Shown here: positions 6,145-30,627 of the stretch, piece by piece
Numbering within the stretch: position 1 is the stretch's first letter
How the letters are laid out: every line of letters starts with the position of its first letter
NCBI GenBank assembly: GCA_035400625.1
Contig: DAOMZT010000001.1
Location: forward strand, 350,004-382,003
Length of the DNA: 32,000 nt
Source: an archaeon
GTDB taxonomy: Archaea > Iainarchaeota > Iainarchaeia > Iainarchaeales > CSSED10-239
Reading direction: 5' to 3'
Notes under the pieces: generated by a model
What the model saw: the letters and a program-made list of their open reading frames with translations, nothing else
What the model was told of the DNA's origin: nothing
Databases searched by the model: none
Translations under genes and position numbers: made by a program

Positions 6145-6196
6145 AAAAGAAAAAAGGACAAAAAGAAAATTGTTTTAATATATAAAGGAGAAAAAA

Positions 6197-6427: not shown

Positions 6428-6475
6428 ATTTCTTCTTAATTCCTTTTTTCTTTTTTAACATTAGATGTAAAAAAT

Positions 6476-7600
6476 ATGAACAAGATAATTTTAGCTTTAT
6501 ATTTTGGTAGTAATTTAGCAGAGAACGTTGCGTCTGATTCTAAACTCTCTAGTATTTTTACTTATAACAATCTAATTATTATGTTAATTGTTATGCTTGT
6601 TATATTGATTATATCCTTATTGGTATTTTTAATTATTCCAAAAATAAACAAAACTCCAAAAAAATATTATCAAAGATATTTAATAGTAAGAAAAGAATTA
6701 GATAAGATAGATGAATTATATGCAAGACGAAAACTTTCTTTTGAAAACTATGCGTTTACTCAATTTCATTATGCTAAAGAGTACGAACACTTGATTGAAT
6801 ATCTTTCTCAATTCCCTGAGTACAAAGATAAATTAAAGTCATATAAATTAAACTATTTAAGAACACAAGAACAACCAGACAAAAATTTATCAGAAGAAGA
6901 AAAAAAGAATGCAGAAATTATTAATTATTTTATAAGAGTTTTAGGTCCAGTTGCCCCTTACTATAGAAAGAATGAGGTTTATCAAGCGATATTAGATGAA
7001 AAATTTTCTAAAGTCATAGCTGAAGGAATAATAAAAGGATTAGAAAAAATTGGTGTTAAATTTAATAGTAAAGAGATATCTGAGAATCGTAAGGGTATTG
7101 AGCTGGTTGACAAATTATTATTAGATAAGCAAGATAAAATTAGACAAAAAGAACAAGAAAAACCAAAGAAATACACGATGCCAGATGTAATAGATAAATC
7201 AATATATTTATCTAGAAAAGCTGCACAAGAGAAAGAGAAACAAGAGAAAGAGAAAATTGTTAAACCAGTAGAACCAGAAAAACCAAATGAAGTTTCTAAG
7301 ATAGAGAATTTTGAGCCACAGATAGAAATCCGAGACGATTTTTTTGAATCAACTACAGATTCTATAAAAGTTTCTGAGCCAACAACTATATCATTAAAAG
7401 ATTTGATAAAGAAAGAATCCCAAAAACCAATGTTTGAAAAAATAACAACTGTTTCTAAATATCCAGAGGAGAGTAGTAAGCCCGCAACTAAAAAGGGGCT
7501 ATTTAAGTCTATAAAAAATATCTTTAAACCTAAAAGAAAATATCATTCCGTTTCTGAGATTAATGATATTTTTGAAAATATTGAAAAGAAATTAAGATAA
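6476..7600 (+). CDS. Hypothetical membrane-anchored Lys/Glu-rich protein
   Basis: 374 aa. It has one clear TM segment, 'LIIMLIVMLVILIISLLVFLII', then a charged, probably helical region. An amphipathic 'KKGLFKSIKNIFKPKRK' lies near the C-terminus. Confidence 0.6.
   Translation: MNKIILALYFGSNLAENVASDSKLSSIFTYNNLIIMLIVMLVILIISLLVFLIIPKINKTPKKYYQRYLIVRKELDKIDELYARRKLSFENYAFTQFHYAKEYEHLIEYLSQFPEYKDKLKSYKLNYLRTQEQPDKNLSEEEKKNAEIINYFIRVLGPVAPYYRKNEVYQAILDEKFSKVIAEGIIKGLEKIGVKFNSKEISENRKGIELVDKLLLDKQDKIRQKEQEKPKKYTMPDVIDKSIYLSRKAAQEKEKQEKEKIVKPVEPEKPNEVSKIENFEPQIEIRDDFFESTTDSIKVSEPTTISLKDLIKKESQKPMFEKITTVSKYPEESSKPATKKGLFKSIKNIFKPKRKYHSVSEINDIFENIEKKLR
7226..7255 (+). repeat. Perfect 2 x 15-nt tandem duplication inside a CDS
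   Basis: 'caagagaaagagaaa' occurs at 7226-7240 and again at 7241-7255, encoding QEKEK-QEKEK. Confidence 0.9.
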
Positions 7601-7607
7601 TGTTTTA

Positions 7608-7757
7608 TTATTTTGATTTCATTAAAAGTATTAGTCCAATAACTATTAATATTAATCCTAGATACAAATTAAAACCAGCAAGAAAACCAGGAAGTGAAGG
7701 AACATATAGTCCTATTCCAATACCTATTAATATACCGCCTACAAGACTTTGACTCAT
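7608..7757 (-). CDS. Small (49 aa) two-helix membrane protein, absent from the ORF track
   Basis: Hand translation of the minus strand from ATG (7755-7757) gives 'MSQSLVGGILIGIGIGLYVPSLPGFLAGFNLYLGLILIVIGLILLMKSK', ending at TAA (7608-7610). It has two Gly-rich hydrophobic segments joined by a 'PSLPG' turn and fills an otherwise empty 239-nt gap. Confidence 0.45.
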   Translation of the reverse strand: MSQSLVGGILIGIGIGLYVPSLPGFLAGFNLYLGLILIVIGLILLMKSK

Positions 7758-7839
7758 ATTATCACCAATTTAATTATTATAAATACAATAAATATATATT
7801 AGTTTGTTTTTAAATATATATACTATAATCTGATTAATA

Positions 7840-12668: not shown

Positions 12669-14225
12669 ATGTCAGATTTTGTAGAACACAGATTTGTTAA
12701 GAAAGAAACAATTCAAAAAAGACTTTATCAAGAGCTTTTAACAGCACAAGCAATTAAGCAAAGCACTCTTGTTGTTGCCCCAACTGGTTTAGGTAAAACA
12801 ATCATTGCTGTTCTGTTGATTGCTTATACCTACAACCCAAAGAAATCAGTAATTCTCTTATCACCTACTAAGCCATTAATATCTCAACATAAAAAAAGCA
12901 TTATAAAATTCTTGGAGATTCCAGAAGATAAAATTATTCTTTTGACTGGCGAAACTTCCCAAGAGAAAAGAAAAGATTTCTATGATGGACAAGGCCTAAT
13001 TATTTGTGCAACACCCCAAACTATACAACATGACTTGGAAAAAAAACTTCTTGACCCCAAAAACTTTAATCTTATTATATTTGATGAGGCACATAGAGCA
13101 GTTGGCAATTACTCATATACTTTTATTTCTCAGTATTTTTCAGATGATGTTAAAAGATTAGGATTAACTGCCTCTCCTGGGGCTAGCAAAGCAAAGATTC
13201 AAGAGGTTGCAGACAACCTTGGCATTTCACATATAGAGATAAGAACAGAGCAAGACCTTGATGTTAAAGATTATGTTAACGATATTGAAGTTGATATAAA
13301 GTTTTTGGAGCTTGACCCTATCTCAAAAGAAATATCTAAAACCATTGATTCTTATATTTTGCAAAAGATAAATCTTTTGCGTAAGCTTGGCTGTCCAATA
13401 CCAACCAATTATTCCAAAAAACAAATAATTGCTATTCAAGCTGGTCTTTTTGAGAGAGTAAAGAAGGTAAAGAATAATACTGGTTTTATTGCAATTTCAA
13501 CAATCGCCTCTGTTCTTAAGTTTCTTCATGCCAAAGAACTAATTGAAACTCAGGGTTTTTTTGCAACAGAAACTTATCTTTTAAAATTAAAAACAGATAA
13601 TCTTGAAAAGAAATCAAAAGCACTATCTGCAATTATTAATTCATCTGAGTTTTTAGAGGTACTTAAGCTTCTTGAAAAAGCAAAGACAAAGAGATGTGCT
13701 AAAGAAACGGCTCTTCTAGAAATGGTTTCAAGCTTTCTGAAGGAAAACCCAAACTCGCGAATTCTTGTTTTTAACAACTATAGGGATAATGCAAACCATC
13801 TTGTAGAGGTGCTTAATCAAACAAGTGGTATAAAAAGCTCACGATTTGTTGGACAGGCAACCAAAAGCCTCTCCGATAAAGGATTATCTCAAAAAGATCA
13901 ATCAAAAATCATTTCTGATTTTCGTGAAGGCATCTATAATGTTTTGGTGTGTACTTCTGTTGGCGAAGAGGGTCTTGATATCCCATCAGTTGATTTAGTA
14001 GTATTTTACGACGCTGTTGCCTCTGAGATAAGAAATATCCAGAGGCGTGGAAGAACCGGCCGTTTTAATGTTGGCAAAGTTATATTGCTTCTTAACAAAG
14101 ACACCATTGACGAAAAATATTATTTTGTTTCCCAAAACAAAGAAAAGAAAATGAAATCAATTCTTAAAAATTTCTATAAGCCAGAAAGGAAAAAAAGGGT
14201 GCAAAAAAAGCTAAGTGATTATTAA
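12669..14225 (+). CDS. hef: Hef/FANCM/Mph1-type SF2 helicase (ERCC4-related helicase), helicase part only
   Basis: 518 aa. Motif I 'APTGLGKT', motif II 'FDEAHRAVGNYSY' (DEAH), 'LTASPG', 'VLVCTSVGEEGLDIP', and motif VI 'QRRGRTGR'. An inserted helical domain lies between the two RecA lobes, as in Hef. There is no nuclease domain on this polypeptide. Confidence 0.85.
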   Translation: MSDFVEHRFVKKETIQKRLYQELLTAQAIKQSTLVVAPTGLGKTIIAVLLIAYTYNPKKSVILLSPTKPLISQHKKSIIKFLEIPEDKIILLTGETSQEKRKDFYDGQGLIICATPQTIQHDLEKKLLDPKNFNLIIFDEAHRAVGNYSYTFISQYFSDDVKRLGLTASPGASKAKIQEVADNLGISHIEIRTEQDLDVKDYVNDIEVDIKFLELDPISKEISKTIDSYILQKINLLRKLGCPIPTNYSKKQIIAIQAGLFERVKKVKNNTGFIAISTIASVLKFLHAKELIETQGFFATETYLLKLKTDNLEKKSKALSAIINSSEFLEVLKLLEKAKTKRCAKETALLEMVSSFLKENPNSRILVFNNYRDNANHLVEVLNQTSGIKSSRFVGQATKSLSDKGLSQKDQSKIISDFREGIYNVLVCTSVGEEGLDIPSVDLVVFYDAVASEIRNIQRRGRTGRFNVGKVILLLNKDTIDEKYYFVSQNKEKKMKSILKNFYKPERKKRVQKKLSDY

Positions 14226-14565: not shown

Positions 14566-14844
14566 ATGACATTTGCTTCTAATCTATCTAATGAATTAAA
14601 AGAAACAATTAAGAAATTGTATTCTAAAGACAAAAAACTTTTTTTAGAATTACAAAAAAAGATAAATCTAATTATCTCTTGTGATAAAGAAACTATCAAT
14701 CATTATAAAAATTTAAGATACGGTCTTTCAGATTACAAAAGAGTGCATGTTGGAAAATCTATTGTTCTTTTATTTTCAGTAGATGTGCAGAATAATACAG
14801 TCTATTTTGTAAAATTTGATCATCACGATAAAATTTATAAGTGA
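14566..14844 (+). CDS. RelE/ParE-superfamily toxin
   Basis: 92 aa. 'YKNLRYGLSDYKRVHVGKSIVLLFSVDVQNNTVYFVKFDHHDKIYK' follows the RelE/ParE C-terminal pattern (l.g....yR.rvG.yr.iy.vd.....v....hr...Y). The size and pairing with a small upstream ORF fit a type II TA module. Confidence 0.6.
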   Translation: MTFASNLSNELKETIKKLYSKDKKLFLELQKKINLIISCDKETINHYKNLRYGLSDYKRVHVGKSIVLLFSVDVQNNTVYFVKFDHHDKIYK

Positions 14845-14850
14845 TTATTA

Positions 14851-15519
14851 ATGACTCAAAAAATAAAAATTATTTGTGACACTCGTGAAAGAGTTAGTCA
14901 AATTTATCAAGAGCTAAAAGCTCTAACAAACGATTCCTTTGAAGTAGAGGTTGTTGTAGAACAGTTATCTCTTGGCGACTACCAGCTAAGCGATCAGGTC
15001 TTGATTGAAAGAAAAACAATAGCTGATCTTGAAAGTTCAATTATTGATGGCAGGATTTTCTCACAGCTTGATAATCTTTCAAGCAAGGTAAATAAGCCAG
15101 GCCTAATTATTGAAGGGGTTATTAATTTTTCAGAAAGTAACACTCGAATCAACAACAAGTCCTTGATTGGCCTTATCACTGCAATTGGTCTTAACTATCG
15201 TGTCCCGATCTTTTTTACAAGGAACCAAAAAGAAACCGCTCTTTTTCTTTATGTGATTGCAAAGCGTGAGCAGTTTGGTGTCAAGACAGAAATCAAACAT
15301 CGCTTCAGCAAGAGCAGGATGTCCTTTTCTGATCAGCAATTATTTATCTTGGAGTCTTTTCCAGATATTGGCCCAACACTTGCTAAAGCTCTTCTTAAAA
15401 AATTTAAAAATATCAGAAACATCGCCAATGCTACAGTTAAGGAGCTTCAAGAAGTGGAGCAGATGGGTCCAAAGAAAGCAGAAAAGATGCATTATCTTTT
15501 CTTAAGAGATTTTATTTAG
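14851..15519 (+). CDS. XPF/ERCC4-type structure-specific nuclease with C-terminal (HhH)2 domain (Hef nuclease part)
   Basis: 222 aa. It has the ERCC4 motif 'IICDTRE...LSLGDYQLSDQVLIERKTIADLESSIIDGRIFSQ' (GDxn-ERKx3D). The helix-hairpin-helix pair is 'FPDIGPTLAKALLKKF...VKELQEVEQMGPKKAEKM'. It starts 6 nt after the toxin stop. Confidence 0.85.
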   Translation: MTQKIKIICDTRERVSQIYQELKALTNDSFEVEVVVEQLSLGDYQLSDQVLIERKTIADLESSIIDGRIFSQLDNLSSKVNKPGLIIEGVINFSESNTRINNKSLIGLITAIGLNYRVPIFFTRNQKETALFLYVIAKREQFGVKTEIKHRFSKSRMSFSDQQLFILESFPDIGPTLAKALLKKFKNIRNIANATVKELQEVEQMGPKKAEKMHYLFLRDFI

Positions 15520-19254: not shown

Positions 19255-21909
19255 ATGAGAAAAGAATATTTGGTTAGTTTGTTATTTTTAGTTGCAATAG
19301 TTATTTCTGGAGTTTCTGCCGACCCTTTTGCAATTAATTATTATGTAAATACTGATAGTTCCCAAGAGTATCTTAATCTTCAATATGGAAACTATTATGA
19401 TAATGTTAGTTTAAGATTATGGCTACAAGCAACAGATGGCTATTCTAATGTGCCAGTTTATGTTTCTCCAAAGATTTATGGTCTTGATTCTTATGGCAAC
19501 CTTACTTACCTCTATTCTGTCCCTACTCAAACATATTATGCTTATTCAACACCTTATGAGTATGTCTATCCAAATGTCTTCTATCTAACTCCTGACTATT
19601 ATGGCTATGTGGTTAAGGTTTATGCAGAGGCAACAGGCTTTTACTATAACACTTACAGCTATGCTTATGTTTATCCAATAAATAATGCTCCTTATTATTA
19701 CTTTATAGAAGATACTCCTGCACACAATGATTTTGATTTTCCACAAAGCACAACTCCAAGTTGTTCAGACATTGTCCTTTCTGGTTCTCAAAATATCTAT
19801 CTAGATGAAGGAGAAAAGATGACTTATAGCCTTTATATTGAAAACGGAGCAAACGAAGATTTAGAGGTTGTTGATGTATATACAAGCAATCCAACAAAAC
19901 TAGATGTTGATGATATTGATTATCCTGATACTGTTCCTGACCTTTCAGTAAGAACAGTAAGAATCTATCTAGAAGCTGACTCAGTAAATGGAGATTATGA
20001 TTCTTCTTTTACTGTTACTGTTAAAGCAAGATATCCAGGTTCTTCAATATGTACAAAAACTTACAAAGTAAACTATAACATAAGTGAAGAAGATGAGGAT
20101 TATGAGGATGTTAGTTGTTCAGACCTAGATTTCTCCAACACAAGCTTTACAATTAATGATGACGAGACAAGCACAAGAAAAGTAAAACTAAAGAACAACT
20201 CATATGATTATGATTTTGAAATTGATGATATAACAATAAACAATAGAGATGGCTTAGATGCATATATAGAAGATGCACCAAGAGTTATTGATTATAGAGA
20301 TTATGAATATGTGGAAATAGAATTTGATGCTGATGACTTTGATTACGATATTACAAAATACTTGACTTTAAATGTAAAAGGTGCTTTTGTTGATGGCTCA
20401 CACGAGGTAAAAGAATGTACAAGAAAAGCAACAATAACTGTAAAGATTGAAGATGATGGCGATAACGATTCTGGTAACAATGAAACAAGCTGTAATGATA
20501 TTTCTCTTTACACAAGAGACATTAGCCAAGCAGAGAACAGCACAAATTATTTTTCTGAAAATAATGGTTTCTATATTTTAAATAATTCAAATAGGACCTT
20601 TACAATAACAAGCCTAAGTTTAAATGATAATTCTAGCTTTGTAGATATAAGCAATCTTAAATATTCCAAAACAATATCTTCAGGAAACACCAGCTCCTTA
20701 AATTTTACTTTAAAAACAAAAAATGTAAACACAACAGAATATGCAAGAGGCACATTATCTGTTGCAGGTAAATTTTCTGATGGCACAACCTGCAGTTCTT
20801 CAAAGATAGGTGTAAAATATTTTGATATAGTTGTAAACGATTCAACAGGAACAACCCAAACAACCCCTACAAACAACACCTCAAACTTTTCTGGAACAAG
20901 CTGTAATCTTGATATTGTTGCTCCATCTACTGTTTCAGTAAACAACAGACAAGAATCAATAAATGTTTATTTCAAGAACTATACAAGTAGGAACGGAAGA
21001 GTTGAAATAATCTCTAATGGCTTAACAACAAACCCAAGTGTTATTTTCCTAAGCGGTTATGATGATTTCTCACAAAACATTGCTCTTTCAAATTTCAATA
21101 ACCCAACAAGCATTACATATGTTGCTTATCTAAATGGCTGTTCTTCAAAATCTACCTTTACTAACATCATTAATAAAATTTCTGAATCTGACAGGATAAC
21201 TTTGGTTTCCTATCCAACTTTTATTAGTCCATTATCTGGCAATGCAAAGATTTCAGTAAATGTGAATAACAGCTTTACTGTTCCTAAAGAAGTAACTATA
21301 AAGTTTGCAGGTCTTCCAAGCACTTTTAGTTCCTCTCCCAAGTCAGTTACTATTTCATCACATGAGACCAAGCAAGTAGATTTGGAACTATCAATTCCAA
21401 AGAATGCTCAAAAAATTGATTATCAAGCATATATTGAGTTATATTCTGGCAATCTTTTAGTTAATAAATATCCAATAACAATTAGCCTATCTCCTGCAAT
21501 ATCGGAGATAACAATAGTTTCTAGTTCCAAGCAATCAGCATCTCAAGATAGAACATACACAATTACTTTAACAATAAAGAACAACACAAATAATATTCAA
21601 GAAGGAGTAGTTGATTTTGGCTTGCCTGACACTTATGTGATTGATGGTGAGAAAAACATCTCTCTTCTTCCAAACGAAGAGGTTACAAAAACCTACAAGA
21701 TTGTTTCTCCAACAAGATTAAGAGAAGACAAGGAAATAGACATAAAGATAAAAAATAAGGCAACAGGCAAAGAGCTAGCAAATGAAAAGATAACCTTAGA
21801 TTCAGGCAGAGCTCCATTAAGTGCTTTCTTTTCTTTAAGAAACACAAGCTTTATTCTTTTAGGTGTTGTTGCACTTATTGTTTTATTTTTAATTTTTAGA
21901 AAGAGATGA
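19255..21909 (+). CDS. Large cell-surface protein: signal peptide, Tyr-rich region, repeated beta-sandwich-like domains, C-terminal TM anchor
   Basis: 884 aa. It has 'ggag' at 19243-19246 and the signal peptide 'MRKEYLVSLLFLVAIVISGVSA'. Many N-x-S/T sequons are present. Four roughly 80-100-aa units are each bracketed by a Cys pair. The C-terminus is 'FILLGVVALIVLFLIFRKR'. Confidence 0.8.
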   Translation: MRKEYLVSLLFLVAIVISGVSADPFAINYYVNTDSSQEYLNLQYGNYYDNVSLRLWLQATDGYSNVPVYVSPKIYGLDSYGNLTYLYSVPTQTYYAYSTPYEYVYPNVFYLTPDYYGYVVKVYAEATGFYYNTYSYAYVYPINNAPYYYFIEDTPAHNDFDFPQSTTPSCSDIVLSGSQNIYLDEGEKMTYSLYIENGANEDLEVVDVYTSNPTKLDVDDIDYPDTVPDLSVRTVRIYLEADSVNGDYDSSFTVTVKARYPGSSICTKTYKVNYNISEEDEDYEDVSCSDLDFSNTSFTINDDETSTRKVKLKNNSYDYDFEIDDITINNRDGLDAYIEDAPRVIDYRDYEYVEIEFDADDFDYDITKYLTLNVKGAFVDGSHEVKECTRKATITVKIEDDGDNDSGNNETSCNDISLYTRDISQAENSTNYFSENNGFYILNNSNRTFTITSLSLNDNSSFVDISNLKYSKTISSGNTSSLNFTLKTKNVNTTEYARGTLSVAGKFSDGTTCSSSKIGVKYFDIVVNDSTGTTQTTPTNNTSNFSGTSCNLDIVAPSTVSVNNRQESINVYFKNYTSRNGRVEIISNGLTTNPSVIFLSGYDDFSQNIALSNFNNPTSITYVAYLNGCSSKSTFTNIINKISESDRITLVSYPTFISPLSGNAKISVNVNNSFTVPKEVTIKFAGLPSTFSSSPKSVTISSHETKQVDLELSIPKNAQKIDYQAYIELYSGNLLVNKYPITISLSPAISEITIVSSSKQSASQDRTYTITLTIKNNTNNIQEGVVDFGLPDTYVIDGEKNISLLPNEEVTKTYKIVSPTRLREDKEIDIKIKNKATGKELANEKITLDSGRAPLSAFFSLRNTSFILLGVVALIVLFLIFRKR

Positions 21910-21938
21910 TTTTCTCTTTTTTTCTTTACTGTTTTTTT
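21910..21938 (+). terminator. Oligo-T tracts after the 884-aa gene
   Basis: 'ttttctctttttttctttactgttttttt' follows directly after the TGA at 21907-21909. Confidence 0.35.
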
Positions 21939-22007
21939 AAAAAAAGAAGCATATAAAAAAGTATTGCCTAAATATATTTGTAGTTTTAAAATAGGGTGAG
22001 TGTAGCT

Positions 22008-23642
22008 ATGAGTAAGAAAGGGCAAGTTGCAATAGAAGTGTTGGTGTTAGTTGGCATAATAGTTATTGGAATGGTTATTTTTGGATTATTTTATATAGGC
22101 AAACACCCTGATCAAATTTCTGAAATAGATGAAGTAACAGAAGCTGGTATGGCAAGGTCTGTTATTAATTATTCTGATGTAACAACTCCATCTAGGATAG
22201 TTTGTGGAAATCAAATTTGCGAATCAGGAGAAACCCCTGCCAATTGCCCACAAGATTGTCAACCATCTTCAGGAAATCAAACTAATTGTGGAAATGAAAC
22301 CATAGATTCTGGAGAAGAATGTGATGGCCTAGATTTAAATGGCCAAACATGTATTACTCAAGGTTTTGATGGTGGTAATTTATCTTGTACTTCTAATTGT
22401 GATTTTAATACTAGTGCTTGTTATAATCTACCGCCATCTGAGTGTGGCAACGGTATTAGAGAAGGCACAGAGGAATGTGATAGGGATGATTTAAACAAAG
22501 AAACATGTGAAAGCAAAGGTTATCAATTTGGTACATTGTCTTGTTCTCGAGAATGTGAGTTTGATTATTCAAATTGTGGTTATGAGGGTGATAGTAATTG
22601 TTCAGTATTTAGTAGCAAGGGCTGGAGACCATACGATACCAATAATCCTACCTGGTATGTAAGTGGGCGAATGTCTACTTGGCCAGATAAAAATGCACTT
22701 TGGCTTTGCCCAAAAGATGATTGTACTCATATAACTGATTATTATTTTTTGTATAATTCTTTTAAGCTTTTTAAAGACACAAATGTAACAATATCTGCTC
22801 TTGGTGATGATGAGACAAAAGTATGGGTGTGGCCTGATAGAAATATCTCACGAGAAGAAGTAGTTATTCCAAAGCATGTTTGGACAAATGGTTGGACTTC
22901 TGGATCAATAATGTTAGAAGGCAGTGAAAGTGGAACTGAACATGCAATAGTTCAATTAATTTACGACACAAAACAAGTAGCAACAGGTGCTATTCTATCT
23001 GTTAGAGAATCAGATACTGACGAAGTTATCTTAAATACAATTTTAACTTCTGGCTGGCGTTATTTTAGCACAATGACACAACTAGAAGAAGAGAGATACT
23101 CTTCTGATAATGCTTGTTCAATAGTATATTCTGATCAAAAATGTGGAAATAACAAAATTGAAGGAAGCGAGCAATGTGATGGCACTGAATTAGGAGAATA
23201 TGGTGCACAAACCTGTAGTGATTATGATTCTTCATATTATGATGGAGAATTAAAATGTCATGAAAAATATTGTTATATTGACACCAGAAATTGTAAATCC
23301 AAAATAAAATTAACAGTCGCTCCTGCGTCAGGAACAACAAGAAGAAACAAAGACTTTTCAACAACTGTTTCTGTAACTGGGAAAAATGATGATGAATTTG
23401 GTTTGGTTGCTTCCATTTATTTGAAAAACACAACTACAGGAGAATATGAGCCAACAATAAATTGCAAGTATGTTTCAACAGGTGAATATAACGATACATT
23501 TGATTTAGGCGGATTTAAAATTCCAATAAACCGCAGTTATAGTTTTAATTGTAATAAAGCAGGAGAATATAAGCTTACTTTTACAGGGACAAACCAAGAA
23601 GATGTTGTTTCTGAAGCATCATCTATAAGAAAAATAACATGA
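22008..23642 (+). CDS. Giant pilin-like protein (class III signal peptide) with Cys-rich repeats and Ig-like C-terminal domain
   Basis: 544 aa from ATG 22008, with 'gggtgag' 8 nt upstream; the ORF track starts at GTG 21996. The N-terminus 'MSKKG|QVAIEVLVLVGIIVIGMVIFGLFY' fits the archaeal prepilin pattern. Three 'CGNxxIExGEECD' repeats and one short Cys knot follow. Confidence 0.75.
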   Translation: MSKKGQVAIEVLVLVGIIVIGMVIFGLFYIGKHPDQISEIDEVTEAGMARSVINYSDVTTPSRIVCGNQICESGETPANCPQDCQPSSGNQTNCGNETIDSGEECDGLDLNGQTCITQGFDGGNLSCTSNCDFNTSACYNLPPSECGNGIREGTEECDRDDLNKETCESKGYQFGTLSCSRECEFDYSNCGYEGDSNCSVFSSKGWRPYDTNNPTWYVSGRMSTWPDKNALWLCPKDDCTHITDYYFLYNSFKLFKDTNVTISALGDDETKVWVWPDRNISREEVVIPKHVWTNGWTSGSIMLEGSESGTEHAIVQLIYDTKQVATGAILSVRESDTDEVILNTILTSGWRYFSTMTQLEEERYSSDNACSIVYSDQKCGNNKIEGSEQCDGTELGEYGAQTCSDYDSSYYDGELKCHEKYCYIDTRNCKSKIKLTVAPASGTTRRNKDFSTTVSVTGKNDDEFGLVASIYLKNTTTGEYEPTINCKYVSTGEYNDTFDLGGFKIPINRSYSFNCNKAGEYKLTFTGTNQEDVVSEASSIRKIT

Positions 23643-23772
23643 ATAAAAAGTAACAAAAGTAAAGAATATCTTTTCAATTTCAAGAAAATTACCAATAACA
23701 AGCAAAGACAAGTAATCTTCTCTGTTTTTAAACATTTCTTTAATATTATATTTTAATTATTTTGGTGATTGA

Positions 23773-26403
23773 ATGATGGTTAAAAAAAAGAAAGCTCAGG
23801 TTGCTTTAGAAATATTGGTTATTTTTGGAATTCTTGTTATCGGTGCTGTTATTTTTGCATTGTTTTATTCAACTAATATTAGAAGCAAAGTAGACATTTC
23901 TTCAAATGTTCAGGGTAGCTATTCAGATATTGAAAAAAATTTACTAAGCGAAGATCCACAACAGCCAATAGAAATTTGTGGTAATGGTCGTTGTGGTCCA
24001 GGAGAAAACAGCGCAAATTGTCCTGATGATTGTGGTTATCCAAATTCACTTTGTCCAACAACCCCATTAAACATATCTGTTAAAATGATACCAAATGAAG
24101 GTGTACCAGCAGGTGCTCCTGGTCATAATACTTTTGATTTAAAAGTAAGTGCTATTAGACAACCAGGATATGATGATAAAGAAATAATTGTTAAAAAATT
24201 AAGAATAAAAAATACAATGGCCACTAATGCGATTTATTACAATAACAACAATTTACCATTAGATGGTGTTGAAATTGATAGCGAAATGAATATAAGCGCA
24301 GAAAATTATTTTAATTATACAATTTCTAATCTTTCAAGTACCCGTTCTGGAAGCTATCCATTTGAAGTTTTAGTTGAAGTTCCTGGTTGTGAGGGATTAG
24401 ATACAATTGGTTCAACAGTTGTTGATATAAAAGGTTTATCTGCAAGATTAAGCTTATATCCTGATGGGGGAAATTATCAAGATGAAAATTTTGGAGTTAA
24501 TGTAGACGTATTTGGTTATAATTCAGGTAGTAACATAAGTATTACAAATATATTTGTAGCAGATGCGCTAGGCAATTTACTTAATAACGTTTGTTCTTAT
24601 AAAAAAGAGAGAATACCTATTTCTGGTAAAAGTGTAGATTTATTACTTGATAAAAGAAATAATAATTATAATTATTTATTTACTAATAATTTTGCTTGTT
24701 ATCAACCAGGCGAATATAAGTTTATATTTACTTTACATGATAATGATGAAAACACAGATTATGATTATAATGCTACAATTTTTAAAAGTATAAAAGATCG
24801 TTGTTTATATTTAAGAAATGCAGGAGAAGGAACAAAATCAAATCCATATATAATTTCTACTCCTGGTGATTTAGATTGTATAAGATACAATCTAAGTAAA
24901 TATTTTAGATTAGGGGCAGATATAGATTTAAATCACGAACTTTTATCTGACAATTCAGAGTATTATTGGTATGATGATATATATGGTTGGAATCCGATAG
25001 GCACAATGGATGCGCCATTTACTGGTTCATTTGATGGTGCAGGCTATACAATACGAAATTTATATACCAGAAGAAACAATGTAGACCCAGTTAATGGGGT
25101 AATAACTCCTATATTATTTACAGGAGATATTTACAATTCTTTATTTTTAAATGTAAGTGATGCTAACTTTAATAATTTAAATTTATCTGGTGTAGATTTA
25201 AATGGTTGGCAATCAGGATCATTAGCTTATTATTCAACCAATTCTAATTTTAAAGACATACATGTTAATGGAGATGTAGTAAGTTATTATTTTGGTGGCG
25301 GAATAGTATCATATGCGCAAGATTCTAATTTTAGTGGTTGTTCATTTGATGGTAATTTAAATATAAAAGGTATGGGTGGCGGATTAATAGGAGAAGCAAA
25401 AAATATTATAATAAATAAGTCTACAGCAAACGCCAACATAATTGGCAAATATATGATTGGTGGGCTAGTTGGTGTGATTAGAGATTTTGATAATCTATCT
25501 TTGATTAAAGAATCATCTAGTTCTGGAATTATTAGTTATGGATCAGGGAGTATAGGGTGTATAGGTGGTTTGTGTGGTTCTTGTGCAAGTGTTATTGTAA
25601 ATAGTCATTCTGATGTTGATATATCAAAAGGCTATTTAAGTATAGGTGGTTTGTGTGGTTCTTGTGTATCAATAATAAACAGTTATGCTACAGGAGATAT
25701 AAATTCGTTAGAAATAACAAGTGGTATTTATGCGAGTGGACATTTACCTAATTATATAGGTGGTTTAGCAGGTGAAGTTTCAGGAGATGTAAAAAATAGT
25801 TATGCTACAGGAAATATAAATCTAATTTCACAACCAAATAACAATGCATTCCGTATTGGAGGATTAATTGGTGCAACTTCTGGTTTTTCTACAACTCCAC
25901 TAAGTGTTAGTAATTCTTATGCCAGAGGCAATATAACAATAAATGGAGTAGCAGAAGAGATTGGGGGGTTAATAGGTCATCCAATGGGATCGTTAAAGCC
26001 TCAAATTCTTAATTGTTATAGTACAGGAAATATAGCAATTTCAGGAGAAAATAGCTTAGTAGGCGGATTAATTGGTGGTAATAATGACGCAAATACAACT
26101 TCAAGTTATTGGGATACTCAAACTTCTGGCCAATCTACAAGCTACGGTGGTTTAGGCAGAACAACAGAAGATATGACTTATCCAGAATACCCAGAAACCT
26201 ATGAAGGTTGGGATTTTAAAAATATTTGGATAAACGATATGAAAAAAACAAATGATGGCTATCCGTATCTTAAGTTAAATATTGTAGGTCTGGAAAGAGG
26301 CAGGGATTTAATCCCTGATTCAGAGGATATTATTGCTTCTTTCCCATATATTTATATTTCAGAAGATGGAGAAACAATAGATCCTGATTTGATTAATAAC
26401 TAG
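23773..26403 (+). CDS. Giant pilin-like protein (class III signal peptide) with Ig-like domains and GLUG-motif beta-helix
   Basis: 876 aa, with 'ggtga' at 23764-23768. The N-terminus is 'MMVKKKKA|QVALEILVIFGILVIGAVIFALFY'. Nine 'GG(G/L)xG' GLUG-type motifs occur at about 27-35-aa spacing, for example 'IGGLVGV', 'IGGLCGSC', 'IGGLAGEV' and 'VGGLIGGN'. The terminal 'SYWDTQTSGQSTS' and 'NDGYPYLK' are typical of GLUG-repeat proteins. Confidence 0.8.
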   Translation: MMVKKKKAQVALEILVIFGILVIGAVIFALFYSTNIRSKVDISSNVQGSYSDIEKNLLSEDPQQPIEICGNGRCGPGENSANCPDDCGYPNSLCPTTPLNISVKMIPNEGVPAGAPGHNTFDLKVSAIRQPGYDDKEIIVKKLRIKNTMATNAIYYNNNNLPLDGVEIDSEMNISAENYFNYTISNLSSTRSGSYPFEVLVEVPGCEGLDTIGSTVVDIKGLSARLSLYPDGGNYQDENFGVNVDVFGYNSGSNISITNIFVADALGNLLNNVCSYKKERIPISGKSVDLLLDKRNNNYNYLFTNNFACYQPGEYKFIFTLHDNDENTDYDYNATIFKSIKDRCLYLRNAGEGTKSNPYIISTPGDLDCIRYNLSKYFRLGADIDLNHELLSDNSEYYWYDDIYGWNPIGTMDAPFTGSFDGAGYTIRNLYTRRNNVDPVNGVITPILFTGDIYNSLFLNVSDANFNNLNLSGVDLNGWQSGSLAYYSTNSNFKDIHVNGDVVSYYFGGGIVSYAQDSNFSGCSFDGNLNIKGMGGGLIGEAKNIIINKSTANANIIGKYMIGGLVGVIRDFDNLSLIKESSSSGIISYGSGSIGCIGGLCGSCASVIVNSHSDVDISKGYLSIGGLCGSCVSIINSYATGDINSLEITSGIYASGHLPNYIGGLAGEVSGDVKNSYATGNINLISQPNNNAFRIGGLIGATSGFSTTPLSVSNSYARGNITINGVAEEIGGLIGHPMGSLKPQILNCYSTGNIAISGENSLVGGLIGGNNDANTTSSYWDTQTSGQSTSYGGLGRTTEDMTYPEYPETYEGWDFKNIWINDMKKTNDGYPYLKLNIVGLERGRDLIPDSEDIIASFPYIYISEDGETIDPDLINN
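25560..25666 (+). repeat. 81-nt-period internal duplication with a 26-nt identical core
   Basis: 'tataggtggtttgtgtggttcttgtg' occurs at 25560-25585 and 25641-25666, exactly 81 nt (27 codons) apart. Both copies encode 'IGGLCGSC'. Confidence 0.9.
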
Positions 26404-26479
26404 TTTATTAATCTCTTTCTTTTTTATTATCTTAATTATTGAGATCATCTATTTCTGATTTTTTAATCATATATTTATT

Positions 26480-26495
26480 TACTAAATATTTAGTA
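26480..26495. repeat. Perfect 16-nt palindrome
   Basis: 'tactaaatatttagta' is self-complementary. It lies in the 322-nt spacer between the 876-aa gene and the GAPDH-like gene. Confidence 0.8.
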
Positions 26496-26725
26496 AGTGA
26501 ATAGTTATTGGTTTTGTAGAAATCCTTTTTTAGTAAATTAATCTAGCAAATCAAAAATTTCTCGCAATTTCATTAATTAGTCCATTTCTCTGCGATTTTT
26601 GATAATATGCATTTACATCATGGTAATTTTATCGATGCGGGGTTTTCATAATAATGTGTGCAGTAAAAAACTCATGCATTTATAAATGGTTTTTTAAATA
26701 TATATATAATTTAGTAGGTGTAATA

Positions 26726-27679
26726 ATGAAAATTGGGATGTGTGGATTTGGAAGAATAGGTAGGCAAATATTTGAAGCACTGTTAAAAGAAAAATGTATC
26801 GATACCATATTTATATATGACCCCCAATTGTCTAAATCTAACTACGATTATTTATTACAATCTGAGTTGGGTCAAGATTATAATAAATTTAAATTTAAAA
26901 TCAACAAAGTAAAAATAATAAGCATAGAAAATAAATTTTATAATCAGATAAGGGATATAAATATATTAATCGAGTGCTCGGAAAAAATAGATCTGAAAAA
27001 AATATTACATTATAATTCTAAATTAAAAATAATTACAACTTATTTTTATAAAGACTCTGATGTAAAAGTAGCATTAGGTTACAATAACATAAAAAAAGAC
27101 GCGCAAATTATTTCGGGATTGACTTGCGATACAATTGCTATTTTGCCAGTGTTGAAAACATTTTTAGAGTTTGATATTCTTTTTTTATCCATTGCATCAA
27201 TTCATCCGGTCTTGTCTTATCAAAAACCGCTAGATAATTTGTATTTTGTTAATAAATCAATAGATTTAGCTAAAATAAGAGGTTTTGTAAATTGTGCAAT
27301 CCCAAGAGATACATCAATAGCTAACATTATTGAAATTGTTTGTCCGAATTTAAAAGGGAAGGTTTTTTCGTATCAATTGAGGATACCAACTACTGAAGTC
27401 ACATCTGCATTTATAACATTATCTACAAAGAAAAAAATAAATATTAATACTGTTAAATCAAAAATAAAAAAAAATAAATACTTGTGTTTTAATAAAGATT
27501 TGAAAATATCTAGCGATTTCGTAAAAGTTTCATTTTCTGCAGTAATTGATTTAAGGTTTTTTAAAGTTCATGAAAATAATTGTGCATTTTTAATGTGGTA
27601 TGATAACGAATATGGGTATTCTCAAAGAATTATAGATGTTGTTAAAGAAATTGGCGATGGTAGTGAATTTAATAAATAA
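26726..27679 (+). CDS. Divergent class I (bacterial/eukaryotic-type) glyceraldehyde-3-phosphate dehydrogenase family protein
   Basis: 317 aa from ATG 26726, with 'gtaggtg' upstream; the ORF-track start 26654 adds an implausible Cys/Phe/Tyr-rich leader. It has 'MKIGMCGFGRIGRQIF' (the NAD-binding GxGRIGR). 'IISGLTCDTIAILPVLK' aligns with 'SNASCTTNCLAP', keeping the Cys at 27125-27127. 'SIHPVLSYQKPLD' keeps the His at 27203-27205. The C-terminal 'WYDNEYGYSQRIIDV' also matches. Confidence 0.7.
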   Translation: MKIGMCGFGRIGRQIFEALLKEKCIDTIFIYDPQLSKSNYDYLLQSELGQDYNKFKFKINKVKIISIENKFYNQIRDINILIECSEKIDLKKILHYNSKLKIITTYFYKDSDVKVALGYNNIKKDAQIISGLTCDTIAILPVLKTFLEFDILFLSIASIHPVLSYQKPLDNLYFVNKSIDLAKIRGFVNCAIPRDTSIANIIEIVCPNLKGKVFSYQLRIPTTEVTSAFITLSTKKKININTVKSKIKKNKYLCFNKDLKISSDFVKVSFSAVIDLRFFKVHENNCAFLMWYDNEYGYSQRIIDVVKEIGDGSEFNK

Positions 27680-28436
27680 ACACAAATCTCAGTGTTTAAA
27701 AATTATAGATGTTTTAAAACGGGATTTAAAAAAAATAAAAGATATAAAATTAGCATTTGTAATAGGTTCCTATAACAAAAAATATTTTTCTATATGTAGC
27801 GATTTGGACATAATAATTATATTAGATGAAGAAAAATTAGATACAATTATTAAATTAAAAACAATGAGAACCAAATTAAAACAAGCATACAAAGTATCAA
27901 TTGATTTTATGATAAATAATATTAGAGAATTAAATATTAATTACCCAATGGGCGAACTAAATAATTTTGTAATAACAAATTTCAACCAAAACAAATATAC
28001 TGTTTTGGTAAATAATTTGTCAGAAAAACACATTTGTAATAAACCCCCTCTTGAATCTATAATTTTAGATAGCAGATATTATTTTAATAAATTACGGTTC
28101 ATATTATTGAATGAATCTTTTTTTATTAGAGATGTACAAAAAAAGGTAGTTGGATATGAAAAAACCAAAATATCTGTGTCTACATTATTTAATTTGGTGC
28201 GAAGGTATATTTTGTTAAAATGTAATTTGTATGTTGAAGAATATGAAGATGTAATAAACATAATTAAAAAAGAATCCTTGCAAGATTCAAAACAACTAGA
28301 GTTGTTTTGGAAATTAAAAATTAACAAACAAGAAATATCTAATGCACAGTTTAAAAAATTATATGACCTATCAAAAAAAATCTATTTTGAAATATTGCAA
28401 CGAAATTTAGGAGAATCAAGATGTCAGAAAAAATGA
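27657..28436 (+). CDS. Pol-beta-superfamily nucleotidyltransferase with helical C-terminal domain
   Basis: 259 aa from ATG 27657, overlapping the upstream gene by 23 nt. 'FVIGSYNKKYFSICSDLDIIIIL' (27765-27809) matches the minimal NTase motif G-S-x(9-13)-D-x-D. The size and two-domain layout resemble kanamycin-NTase-like proteins. Confidence 0.6.
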   Translation: MVVNLINKHKSQCLKIIDVLKRDLKKIKDIKLAFVIGSYNKKYFSICSDLDIIIILDEEKLDTIIKLKTMRTKLKQAYKVSIDFMINNIRELNINYPMGELNNFVITNFNQNKYTVLVNNLSEKHICNKPPLESIILDSRYYFNKLRFILLNESFFIRDVQKKVVGYEKTKISVSTLFNLVRRYILLKCNLYVEEYEDVINIIKKESLQDSKQLELFWKLKINKQEISNAQFKKLYDLSKKIYFEILQRNLGESRCQKK

Positions 28437-28981
28437 TTGTTTTTATAAATGGACCAACTGCTGTTGGTAAAACCACCGTTTCTAGAATTTTAAAAGAACA
28501 ACACGGGGCGACAATGGTAAGCATAAGTACCATTTTACGAGAGGAAGGCAAAAAAGTTGGTGCAAAAACAGCTGCAGATTTTGTTGAAAAAAACCTTAAG
28601 GGATCAATAGAAAAAAAATTGGCGTGTATTATAAATAATTTAAAACCAATTGTTGCAAAAAATAATCTTATATGTATTGAGAGTGCATATAATCAAATAG
28701 AAATTGATGCAATAAAAAAATATTTTGGGAAGAAAGGTTCTGTTGAATTTAAAGCCGTTTATTTAACTGCCGATTTAAATAAAAGAATAAATAGATTAAT
28801 GCGTAGAGAGAATATAAAAGATAGGCGGTGTGCTTTAATTCGCACATTATTAGTAAATGCCATTAGATCAAAAATGGGAATGACAAATATAAAATATGAT
28901 ATAGTTCATAAAAACAATTCAAAAAAAGCACCCAAAAAGTTAGTTAAAAAAATAATTAAGCCAACAAGGAGGAGGTTATAA
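28421..28981 (+). CDS. P-loop kinase-like NTPase (small nucleotide/metabolite kinase fold)
   Basis: 186 aa. The Walker A 'INGPTAVGKTTVSR' (28451-28477) sits right at the N-terminus, as in adenylate/shikimate/cytidylate-type kinases. It has a basic tail 'KKAPKKLVKKIIKPTRRRL' and overlaps the upstream gene by 16 nt. Confidence 0.6.
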   Translation: MSEKMIVFINGPTAVGKTTVSRILKEQHGATMVSISTILREEGKKVGAKTAADFVEKNLKGSIEKKLACIINNLKPIVAKNNLICIESAYNQIEIDAIKKYFGKKGSVEFKAVYLTADLNKRINRLMRRENIKDRRCALIRTLLVNAIRSKMGMTNIKYDIVHKNNSKKAPKKLVKKIIKPTRRRL

Positions 28982-28982
28982 T

Positions 28983-30440
28983 ATGAGAATATTATTTATT
29001 TACCCCTACATGCCTGCGGGAATGAATGTTCATTCAAAGAATGTGATGTCTGCTATAAATAAACACTACACAGATATGATTCTTACAAAATGGGAATATA
29101 AAGAATTTACAAATATTGATGATTATAATTTTGAGAATAAATCTTTAATTGATTTTATAATAAATAACAAAATAGATTTAGCACACATAGAATTTGACTT
29201 TGGATATTATGGATTTGATTTTGGTTGTGTTCCTTTTGTAGATTTAATTAACTTGTTTAAACAAAACAATATAGAGTACACATTATCGATACACAACCCA
29301 CCAGAAACATTTATACAATCTATGAAGGTTTTAAATAAAGATGTGAAAAAATTTAGTGAAGTTATTGATTATTTAAATAAAGAGCCAGATATACGAAAAA
29401 TAGTTCACAACCCACTATTTTTAGGGCATTTTGCACCTTTATTGCCTGTGAAAGAAAATTTTTACCAGGTTAGAGATTTAGATTTTAAAAATAAAGAAAA
29501 AATAATTATAGGCATTGTGGGATTTTTACATAAAGCAAAAGGATATGAAGATTTATTTAAATTTGCTAAAAAATACAAAGATTTATTTGTAAATCAAAAT
29601 ATATTAATTAAAGCTCTATTTTTTATGAGAGGAGATAGAAAAACACCTGACAGATTAGAATATAAAAAATTTATAGAAGGATTTAATGATAGTCATATAA
29701 GCATTCAAATTATTGATGAAAATTTAGATGCGTATTGTTCTTTTTTTAATGAAATAGATGTCGGATTTTCTACTCATTGTACATTAACCGAAAGTGCAAC
29801 AATAACTGATTATGTTTATTATGGGCTACCTGTTATTGCAAAAGAGCATTTTAATTTATTGTATTTAGATTTTATATTGATGTATAATAATTGGGACACA
29901 TTATATGGGTATATATCTAATATTAGAAAAACATTAATGGAATATGATTTTAATAAGCAACGTTCTTTTTGTAATATATTCAATTCAGAGTATGTTGCAA
30001 CTAAATATCGTTTAGCATTTATTAAAAATGGCATCTGTTCTTTTAAACATAGACCAGTTGTTGGTTGTCTGTGTTATTATAATGGAAAACAAATTTTATT
30101 TAAAAAAAATAACGTCCCTTTTTTTGATATAATGCACGGAGGTATTGAAAAAAATGAAACTGATAAAAAAGCTTTAGAAAGGGAAATTTTTGAAGAGTTG
30201 GGATTAACTTCAGATCAAATAATTATTAAAGAAAAAATTTGCTCTTTTGAATACTCAAAGCCAATCAAATTACAAATTAAAGTATCAAACAAAGGATCAA
30301 AAATGAATATATATTATGTTGAATTAAAAGAGTTACCTAAATTACCTACTATCGAGATAGAATCTTATAGTGTTTATTTTAAAGACTTATTAATTTACGA
30401 GAGTACAAGAGCTTTATTAAACACTATCTCTAAAACATAA
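28983..30440 (+). CDS. Fusion protein: GT-B (GT4-like) glycosyltransferase N-terminal region plus C-terminal Nudix hydrolase domain
   Basis: 485 aa, starting 1 nt after the kinase stop. The GT-B-like features are 'MRILFIYPY', 'IIGIVGFLHKAKGYEDLFKFAKK' and 'ESATITDYVYYGLPVIA'. A textbook Nudix box 'GGIEKNETDKKALEREIFEELGL' (GX5EX7REUXEEXGU) lies at 30138-30206. Confidence 0.7.
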   Translation: MRILFIYPYMPAGMNVHSKNVMSAINKHYTDMILTKWEYKEFTNIDDYNFENKSLIDFIINNKIDLAHIEFDFGYYGFDFGCVPFVDLINLFKQNNIEYTLSIHNPPETFIQSMKVLNKDVKKFSEVIDYLNKEPDIRKIVHNPLFLGHFAPLLPVKENFYQVRDLDFKNKEKIIIGIVGFLHKAKGYEDLFKFAKKYKDLFVNQNILIKALFFMRGDRKTPDRLEYKKFIEGFNDSHISIQIIDENLDAYCSFFNEIDVGFSTHCTLTESATITDYVYYGLPVIAKEHFNLLYLDFILMYNNWDTLYGYISNIRKTLMEYDFNKQRSFCNIFNSEYVATKYRLAFIKNGICSFKHRPVVGCLCYYNGKQILFKKNNVPFFDIMHGGIEKNETDKKALEREIFEELGLTSDQIIIKEKICSFEYSKPIKLQIKVSNKGSKMNIYYVELKELPKLPTIEIESYSVYFKDLLIYESTRALLNTISKT

Positions 30441-30592
30441 TACAAGCAATATTCCAAGACCCACTAATCCAAAAATCACAGAAATTATTATTGTTGAGTG
30501 CTTTGTTAGTAGAAAATTATATTTTTATACAAAAATTAACCAACCACATTAGCGCACATAACTTCGTAATTCTATTTAGTTAATAGTTTTCA

Positions 30593-30605
30593 AAACCTTT
30601 AAAAA
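30593..30605 (+). promoter_or_regulatory. Candidate BRE/TATA for the M6 protease gene
   Basis: 'aaaacctttaaaaa' has its TATA-like core about 23-30 nt upstream of ATG 30628, implying a leaderless mRNA. A near-identical 'gaaacctttaaaaac' occurs at 9788-9802. Confidence 0.35.
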
Positions 30606-30627
30606 CTTATTCTACCTTAATATATTT

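Follow-up and report, generated by a model that had tools for sequence, protein, structure and literature searches.

Glycoside pathways that pair a GT-B glycosyltransferase (GT) synthase with a HAD phosphatase are known from sucrose-phosphate synthase/phosphatase, OtsA/OtsB, MshA/MshA2 and BshA, and the GpgS/GpgP route to glucosylglycerate follows the same logic. Coupled pairs of a nucleotidyltransferase (NTase) and a P-loop kinase are represented by PPAT with dephospho-CoA kinase (COASY) and by ATP sulfurylase with APS kinase (PAPSS), and Campylobacter Cj1416/Cj1415 is reportedly an NTase/kinase pair for a phosphoramidate donor. Nudix hydrolases also stand beside nucleotide-sugar-using enzymes, an example being WcaH/Gmm, the GDP-mannose mannosyl hydrolase of the colanic-acid cluster. 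We analysed a window of 32,000 nucleotides (the whole stretch of DNA under study; contig DAOMZT010000001.1, positions 350,004 to 382,003) from an archaeon of the Iainarchaeota, in which four genes (g1 to g4) on the plus strand, overlapping or abutting one another, fill positions 26726-30440. They encode a GAPDH-like dehydrogenase, a Pol-beta NTase, a P-loop kinase and a GT fused to a Nudix hydrolase.

Compared with the GT-B/HAD glycoside pathways, the cassette has a Pol-beta NTase, a nucleoside monophosphate (NMP)-kinase-like kinase and a fused Nudix domain, none of which occurs in those pathways, nor does the prenyl synthase found in sister lineages of the cassette; a HAD accompanies the GT-B enzyme in sister lineages but not in the window. 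Within the GpgS/GpgP logic the dehydrogenase here could supply a C3/C4 acid acceptor, but GpgS and MpgS are GT-A enzymes, unlike g4, which scores below every GT model of Pfam and NCBIfam. The g2-g3 arrangement resembles the COASY- and PAPSS-type pairs in that an NTase gene is followed by a P-loop kinase gene and the two are fused in distant relatives, and by analogy the Nudix domain could cleave the resulting pyrophosphate-linked product. However, the Pol-beta/KNTase-like fold of g2 differs from the HIGH-motif and sulfurylase NTases, and no homology to those enzymes was detected. A literature search returned nothing useful on this gene combination in DPANN archaea or on VakA. As an earlier note made from the letters of the window had supposed, no described pathway or defence system has the composition of the cassette. 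None of the genes reaches the equivalog score of a standard pathway, and for two of the four proteins the family is nearly confined to the cassette. The chemistry implied is nevertheless of a familiar kind, namely nucleotide activation, glycosyl transfer and phosphate trimming. We tentatively interpret the four genes, at a rough probability of 0.4, as one operon for an accessory, lineage-restricted, nucleotide-activated glycoconjugate pathway that is probably isoprenoid- or envelope-linked.

Four tightly packed genes with intact catalytic motifs

The tight packing described by the earlier note (overlaps of 23 and 16 nt and a spacer of 1 nt) agrees with the listing of open reading frames (ORFs). 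g1 (26726-27679) is followed by g2 (27657-28436), for which starts at 27636 and 27645 are also available, so that its product has 259-266 aa and the g1/g2 overlap is 23-44 nt; g3 (28421-28981; 186 aa) overlaps g2 by 16 nt, and g4 (28983-30440) follows after a 1-nt gap. An alternative in-frame ATG for g1 lies at 26654, but 26726 is favoured because the gene calls of orthologues are mostly 317 aa, the length obtained from this start, and because AGGTG lies 7 nt upstream. The four domain assignments of the note were all verified by Pfam, by alignments and by AlphaFold2 (AF2) models searched with Foldseek. Catalytic motifs are intact in each product: the Cys/His of g1, the GS..DxD and third Asp of g2, the P-loop of g3, the Nudix box of g4 and, in relatives, the two DDxxD motifs of the prenyl synthase.

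g1 is a divergent NAD-dependent dehydrogenase of the type-I GAPDH family (Pfam Gp_dh_C, 43.9 bits; Gp_dh_N, 29.4 bits). It resembles GAPDH, Epd and the ArsJ-associated GAPDH in its full-length match, GxGxxG, Asp32, Cys149/His176, R231 and WYDNE. Alignment to PDB GAPDHs showed GFGRIGR, Asp32 (in IYDP) and WYDNEYGYS to be retained and invariant in the family, as is the Cys149/His176 dyad, with the catalytic Cys in GLTCDT (27116-27133) and the His in SIHPVLSYQ (27197-27223); T208 and R231 (in QLRIPT) are retained as well. Unlike a type-I GAPDH, g1 scores 121 bits over its full length against the equivalog TIGR01534 (cut-off 367.2) and lies far below the cut-offs of all other GAPDH and E4PDH equivalogs. 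Its anion sites are altered by T150 to D and T179 to L, both fixed throughout the family; R195 is unconserved (K in the window, lost in the sister loci L008 and L014), the S-loop is shortened, and the gene is deleted in a close relative. The altered phosphate sites argue against ordinary glycolytic oxidation of glyceraldehyde 3-phosphate. Since the enolase of the same window scores 360 bits while g1 reaches one third of the GAPDH cut-off, the divergence of g1 is not general drift, and together with the deletion in a close relative this suggests that g1 is more than a drifted housekeeping enzyme.

g2 matches Pfam Polbeta and NTP_transf_2. Its catalytic GS...DLD motif (GS-x11-DLD; 27765-27809) and a third carboxylate in IDFM (27900-27920) fit the pattern hG[GS]x9-13Dh[DE]h plus third carboxylate, and neither GSYNKKYFSICSDLD nor IDFM varies among 5 lineages. 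The AF2 model (pLDDT 75) consists of a Pol-beta domain followed by a C-terminal helical domain, an architecture like that of the kanamycin and streptomycin NTases. Its best full-length Foldseek matches are AAD(9), AadA, ANT(4'), LinB and KNTase (TM 0.25-0.30, rmsd about 14 Å). AAD(9), AadA/ANT(3'')(9), ANT(4')/KNTase and LinB share with g2 the layout of an N-terminal Pol-beta NTase and a C-terminal helical domain, but sequence identity to these aminoglycoside and lincosamide NTases is 9-13% at the low TM values given, and the genomic context of g2 is biosynthetic, unlike that of a resistance gene. A profile of g2 searched against PDB NTases gave no sequence-level match except MntA (E = 0.4). 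The family is narrow, with 5 clusters among 5.8 billion proteins and 19 profile matches at E < 1e-3 among 1.84 billion representatives.

g3 is an NMP-kinase-like P-loop protein (Pfam AAA_18 and AAA_17) with the P-loop GPTAVGKTT (28451-28477), a LID-like RLMRRE (28793-28810) and, in the family alignment, a conserved basic C-terminal tail (28934-28978). The family profile matches UMP-CMP kinase 1tev over residues 4-134 (E = 1.3e-6), all NCBIfam kinase models score far below their cut-offs, and the GFPR arginine is unconserved. The GPTAVGKT P-loop, together with the prenyl synthase next door in relatives, had suggested a tRNA isopentenyltransferase-like prenyl transferase; the idea was dropped, as only the P-loop aligns to MiaA (E = 0.04-0.95), and the Asp of what we take to be the MiaA-type DS motif was not located in g3.

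g4 combines a GT-B, GT4-like N-terminal domain (28983-30035; residues 1 to about 351) with a C-terminal Nudix hydrolase (30036-30440). Residues 1-350 gave no Pfam or NCBIfam GT match. The AF2 model (pLDDT 73) shows two Rossmann-like domains in a GT-B fold, and Foldseek returned glycogen synthase, TreT, BshA, OtsA and GlgM (probability 1.0, target TM 0.44-0.54), with UDP-GlcNAc 2-epimerases, which share the GT-B fold, scoring similarly. On the model, the domain appears nearest to BshA, TreT, OtsA and GlgM, whose acceptors are small phosphorylated or acid compounds. BLASTP relates it to a protein of a distant locus (L029, below) that carries Pfam Glycos_transf_1 (E = 1e-8 to 1e-11), which is a transitive family link only. 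HIEFDFGYYG (29184-29213) and GFLHKAKGY (29520-29546) are invariant; at the EX7E position the window has TESATITDY (E...D), the first Glu being Gln in three family members and TIT invariant.

The Nudix domain contains a complete box GX5EX7REUXEEXGU at residues 386-408 (30138-30206; GGIEKNETDKKALEREIFEELGL) and matches Pfam NUDIX PF00293 with 26.2 bits (cut-off 21.1). As with Nudix enzymes of polysaccharide clusters or fused to nucleotide enzymes, a canonical box here accompanies a nucleotide-sugar-using enzyme; RppH and MutT-type proteins are the closest matches in sequence and structure, though weak ones: the best RppH model gives 25.8 bits against cut-offs of 116-259, which places g4 below the RppH equivalog. 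The family-invariant FEY has its Tyr 16 residues past the box, a position that is presumably an RppH/ApnA-type specificity mark and is taken here as a lead only. Identity to the free-standing Nudix of L029 is 37%. The GT-Nudix fusion was found in only 6 clusters among 5.8 billion proteins, a search of GTDB representatives found one other genome, and among the Nudix proteins of polysaccharide clusters or nucleotide enzymes (WcaH, NadM-Nudix, RppH) we found no described GT4-Nudix fusion.

Synteny, loss and distant versions of the cassette

g1 to g4 are syntenic in at least five related lineages, of which three add a divergent prenyl-diphosphate synthase (PPS) and two a HAD phosphatase; the four families thus co-occur elsewhere, in line with the self-contained cassette of the earlier note, which would have been refuted had the genes never been syntenic in other genomes. 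In L017 (g4 86% identical to that of the window) the order is g1-g2-g3-g4. In L008-L012 (50%) and L014 (51%) it is g1-PPS-g2-g3-g4 with a divergently transcribed HAD phosphatase that resembles pyrimidine 5'-nucleotidases. L023 (41%) has PPS-g2-g3-g4, without g1, after genes for LeuRS, an AAA_14/DUF4143 protein and a 131-aa ORF product. L027 and L013, from the same sample (40%), hold a PPS-g2-g3 fragment and a GT-B-only protein, respectively; the latter form of g4 has 362 aa and no Nudix domain and lies tail-to-tail with a RuBisCO large-subunit gene (L013:136-2406). The PPS is very divergent and keeps both DDxxD motifs. A tblastn search of the window and of L001, a contig that continues past the window end, found no prenyl synthase and no HAD.

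Two loci record loss of the upstream genes. On the 977-kb contig of L021, g4 is 93% identical to that of L014 and g1-PPS-g2-g3 are deleted as one clean block: DNA identity of 90% begins 47 nt upstream of g4, inside the 3' end of the L014 g3, so that the last ~47 nt of g3, including the g4 ribosome-binding site, are kept (L021:6954-7000 against L014:5645-5691). In L007 (4160-5039; CAYXAY010000003.1), a g1 N-terminal remnant of about 33 codons runs directly into about 81 codons from the C-terminus of g2, followed by a frameshifted g3 and an intact g4, and these upstream remnants are a recently decayed copy of the cassette. The L021 deletion and the L007 pseudogenes, with g4 kept in both, show a cassette that is ancestral in the clade, vertically inherited and repeatedly lost, conserved yet dispensable.

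Comparison with L017, a lineage 80-86% identical, gave dS of 0.73-0.74 in all four genes and dN/dS of 0.10-0.15; g1 to g4 have evolved together under purifying selection. The operon has 25.0% GC against 29.6 ± 1.9% for equal-sized windows and is the lowest such segment of the window. This agrees with the AT-richness seen by the note, although its spot values of 10-20% overstate the case (1-kb windows within the operon: 23-27%). The sliding-window and codon-usage check thus found a real but modest shift (0.25 against 0.30), with GC at third codon positions (GC3) barely lower than in the other genes of the window (0.17-0.20 against 0.21 ± 0.04, p = 0.07), GC at first positions (GC1) clearly lower (p = 0.008) and the residues F/Y/N/I/K enriched (0.43 against 0.36). 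Since codon positions 1 and 2 account for most of the drop, it mirrors the amino-acid make-up of the proteins and provides no evidence for acquisition; the shift is as expected of weakly constrained, lineage-specific proteins in an AT-rich genome, with no foreign codon signature. Horizontal acquisition, which the note had raised as possible from composition, was rejected on these grounds (GC3 near the window average, a shift mostly in GC1/GC2 and amino-acid usage, uniform dS). A viral or phage origin was rejected as well, since IMG/VR held no relatives of g4 or g2 and INPHARED none of g4.

Remote loci were collected by an exhaustive profile search with g2. In two of them a g2-like NTase and a P-loop kinase form a single protein (P0020, L026:5570-6913; P0023, L028:1399-2706), and the kinases fused or adjacent to the distant NTases belong to the 2-phosphoglycerate kinase (2PGK)/mevalonate-3-phosphate 5-kinase (M3P5K) family (99-123 bits). 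L029 encodes an NTase, a 2PGK-like kinase, a HAD, a GT4, a free Nudix and a g3-like kinase, all but the 2PGK-like kinase being homologues of cassette proteins detectable by BLAST. L026 encodes a Nudix, a prenyl synthase homologous to the cassette PPS (E = 1e-14), a radical SAM protein, CTP synthase, the NTase-kinase fusion, an HD phosphohydrolase and a GT2; L028 has a full aldehyde dehydrogenase (ALDH) directly upstream of its fusion; and L031 encodes an MFS transporter, an NTase, a malic enzyme and a cytidylate-kinase-like kinase. Relative to the cassette, GT4 gives way to GT2, HAD to HD and the GAPDH-like gene to ALDH or malic enzyme in these loci, and a Nudix is unfused from the GT4. The recurrence of the NTase-kinase pair, its fusion and the swapping of non-homologous partners argue for one pathway and not for chance packing.

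The kinase g3 was also tried as a member of the 2PGK/M3P5K family and rejected: it has no match to PRK04220 or PRK12339, alignment by hhalign to the fused kinase of the distant NTases covers the P-loop alone (79% probability), and its homologue in L029 is the other kinase, not the 2PGK-like one. Radical-SAM genes occur near both L007 and L026; a viperin-like role for them was discarded, as the L026 enzyme matches SPASM and AhbD-type models and not viperin.

A proposed glycoconjugate pathway and competing readings

In the pathway that we favour, g1 would use thioacyl-enzyme chemistry to oxidise a small aldehyde (probably C3), yielding an acid or an acyl-phosphate. g2 and g3 would act as a coupled pair, one attaching the intermediate to an NMP and the other phosphorylating the nucleotide-bearing intermediate or supplying the nucleoside triphosphate (NTP), possibly a pyrimidine, a hint taken from the resemblance of g3 to UMP/CMP kinases, from the likeness of the HAD to pyrimidine nucleotidases and from a neighbouring CTP synthase in L026. 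Through its GT4-like domain, g4 would then join a sugar to the acceptor, and its Nudix domain (with the HAD phosphatase in sister lineages) would remove nucleotide or phosphate or police the donor pool. The product is likely to be isoprenoid-linked or envelope-associated because a PPS is present in three sister operons and genes for giant surface proteins are repeated neighbours. Gene structure, folds, catalytic motifs, synteny, gene fusions, purifying selection and dispensability are shown by the analysis; we infer the order of the steps, the substrate and the cellular role. Of the two functions put forward in the earlier note, activation and transfer of a sugar or sugar-acid fits best, and the additions seen in relatives (HAD and prenyl synthase) and the GT, Nudix, phosphatase and dehydrogenase kept in distant loci are in line with it.

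The neighbouring surface proteins, which the note had named as a possible target, recur as large proteins beside the cassette in several lineages: a CHB_HEX_C/RCC1 protein in L014 and L021, and S_layer_C and Ig-like proteins in L007. This support is circumstantial, and the adjacency may be due to chance in genomes rich in such genes.

That adjacency is one of several points that weigh against the favoured pathway. No characterised pathway has this composition, and the assignment of the substrate is our inference. The usual NDP-sugar synthases are not Pol-beta NTases, and the usual sugar kinases are not NMP-kinase-like P-loop enzymes. The isoprenoid link would be drawn by analogy from sister lineages, the tblastn search of the window having found neither prenyl synthase nor HAD. 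The survival of an intact g4 where g1 to g3 are deleted (L021) or decayed (L007) suggests that the GT-Nudix protein can work alone. Finally, the AF2 models of g4 and g2 were built from alignments of 5-6 sequences, and their pLDDT of 73-75 denotes moderate confidence.

A conflict or anti-virus module, in which NTase, kinase and Nudix would make, modify or deplete a nucleotide (as a signal, a chain terminator or a control of the NTP pool) and the GT would modify nucleic acid or a nucleotide, is unlikely. It is consistent with the extremely narrow protein families, with the patchy distribution of the cassette, including recent deletion and pseudogenisation, and with the defence-type neighbours of L007 and L023 (AbiE, AAA_14/DUF4143 and NB-ARC-like genes). 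The fold of g2, an MNT plus HEPN-like helical domain with weak matches to MntA and Hailong HalB, points the same way, as does the g3-like kinase of L029, which resembles the kinase-like domain of an anti-phage dCTP deaminase (27-33 bits). However, PADLOC-DB v2, proposed in the earlier note as a check for defence, returned weak, generic single-domain matches and no system: the NTase matched PDC-S09/PDC-M05A, the kinase VakA (23.8 bits) and the Nudix PDC-S07, with no match for g1 or the GT domain. The CBASS cyclase model NF041117 scored 13.9 bits against a cut-off of 200. The recurrent partners (GAPDH/ALDH/malic enzyme, prenyl synthase, HAD, GT4/GT2) are typical of biosynthesis, the cassette of the window lies between surface-protein genes and near ribosomal-protein operons, and relatives were absent from IMG/VR and phage genomes. 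The second function suggested by the note, a conflict or resistance module centred on NAD or another nucleotide, thus keeps the patchy loss and the defence-island neighbours of two loci in its favour and finds little support otherwise.

Salvage and housecleaning of nucleotides or NAD, with kinase, NTase and Nudix (plus the HAD nucleotidase) interconverting a nucleoside, NMP or dinucleotide beside NAD-dependent dehydrogenases, is likewise improbable. Such dehydrogenases are neighbours in the window, L028 and L031, L026 has a CTP synthase alongside, and g3 resembles UMP-CMP, uridine and cytidylate kinases while the HAD resembles pyrimidine 5'-nucleotidases. The NTase-kinase fusions mirror NadR (NMNAT plus ribosylnicotinamide kinase), and an NTase-Nudix logic is that of NadM-Nudix, whose structure 2qjo is the top Foldseek hit of g4 by E-value. 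That hit has a TM of just 0.17-0.25, however, and is driven by the Nudix and a generic Rossmann-like domain; the fold of g2 is not that of NMNAT; the conserved GT (GT4/GT2) and the prenyl synthase would be left unexplained; and a salvage system ought to be common among auxotrophic archaea, yet these families are nearly unique.

A more specific form of the glycoconjugate pathway, in which the operon and its distant analogues would build an isoprenoid-anchored glycolipid or glycan carrier via a nucleotide-activated (phospho)hydroxy-acid for the own envelope glycoconjugate of lipid-auxotrophic DPANN-type archaea, is an undescribed route that we regard as speculative and give little weight. The linkage so formed would be reminiscent of moenomycin, with its phosphoglycerate-lipid, or of F420, with its phospholactyl bridge.

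Handling of isoprenoid phosphates is a quite doubtful alternative. The kinase would act on a prenyl or mevalonate-type monophosphate, analogous to animal phosphomevalonate kinase or M3P5K, the Nudix would trim prenyl diphosphates, the synthase would elongate them and the GT would make a prenyl glycoside, so that a lipid-auxotrophic archaeon could salvage its lipid carriers or obtain them by an alternative route. Three lineages and the L027 fragment have a prenyl synthase within the operon and L026 has one nearby, and these enzymes are mutually homologous at the E-value given above; the kinase fused or adjacent to distant NTases is of the 2PGK/M3P5K family; and the basic tail of g3 could bind membranes. 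Yet no prenyl synthase was found in the window, g3 itself has no 2PGK/M3P5K match, its L029 homologue being the other kinase, the Nudix has the box of a canonical hydrolase, with RppH and ApnA types closest to it, and the NTase is given no role. 

That a compact genome has simply brought four unrelated housekeeping genes side by side with no joint function (for a glycolytic GAPDH, a generic NTase, a nucleotide kinase and a GT) is highly improbable, for although genes are densely packed window-wide, an enolase indicates that lower glycolysis exists and g4 survives without g1-g3 in two lineages, order and overlaps are kept down to 41% identity, NTase-kinase fusions are of the Rosetta-stone kind, the functional set recurs in distant genomes with non-homologous replacements, g1-PPS-g2-g3 were lost as one block, and g1 is far below GAPDH equivalog scores with altered phosphate sites.

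Surroundings of the operon and implications

The operon is bounded by an upstream non-coding spacer of 322 nt (26404-26725), with an A/T-rich TATA-like stretch and the AGGTG ribosome-binding-like motif just before g1, and by a downstream spacer of 187 nt (30441-30627). The earlier note counted them among the longest in the window; the sizes hold, and they rank third and sixth, behind spacers of 340 and 331 nt. A riboswitch or other RNA element in the 322-nt leader was rejected: the leader has no Rfam family (gathering or E ≤ 1 thresholds) and no tRNA, nor has the window as a whole, and it is not conserved in L017 and L018 (80%-identity lineage).

The flanking genes encode surface proteins, with a Glug-domain protein upstream and, from 30628, an M6-peptidase-like protein downstream (Pfam Peptidase_M6; full product 972 aa with CHB_HEX_C and Fn3_assoc repeats). 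The three consecutive large ORFs at 19255-26403 (884, 548 and 876 aa) have as their sole Pfam match one GLUG motif in the third; their lengths vary between otherwise identical contigs (916/582/875 aa in L002), and they are presumably hypervariable surface proteins. About 5 kb past the end of the window, the gene for a 656-aa protein that carries PT-HINT and intein-splicing domains (L001:16163-18133) sits between surface-protein genes and the L3-L4-L23-L2 operon.

Further surroundings comprise PheRS alpha and beta, enolase, a MinD/ParA-like ATPase, a Hef-type helicase, a separate ERCC4 nuclease and S8e, with an L3-L4-L23-L2-S19 ribosomal operon further downstream; the surrounding genes are archaeal, as judged from Hef, S8e, the order of ribosomal proteins and PheRS. 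Genes are densely packed across the whole window, whose DNA was also found in the NCBI metagenome-assembled genome GCA_029563035.1 (contig JAKQTP010000138.1), with identical copies in several metagenome assemblies. Hef is split into separate ORFs for a Hef-like helicase (12669-14225; 518 aa) and an ERCC4/HhH2 nuclease (14851-15519; 222 aa), between which lie the 340-nt gap, the longest spacer of the window, and a 92-aa ORF (14566-14844). The 331-nt spacer (6145-6475) and one of 239 nt (7601-7839) flank an unannotated 374-aa ORF (6476-7600) in a second low-GC patch (about 25%) with no RNA family. On the minus strand, 2612-3325 encodes a zinc-dependent phospholipase C-like protein (Pfam Zn_dep_PLPC, E = 1e-8), which could have a role in harvesting host lipids.

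Archaea of this type, with small genomes, are generally regarded as host-dependent and as lacking most biosynthesis. If the operon is an ordinary glycosylation module, its value would lie mainly in improved annotation of a few rare families. The NTase-kinase pairing and the GT4-Nudix fusion are concrete targets for assay, and the presence/absence polymorphism between near-identical genomes provides natural knock-outs for comparison. As a conserved, selected and self-contained set of enzymes, all remote from characterised families, the operon points to a metabolic capability missed by annotation, probably concerned with the envelope or with nucleotide-linked metabolites.

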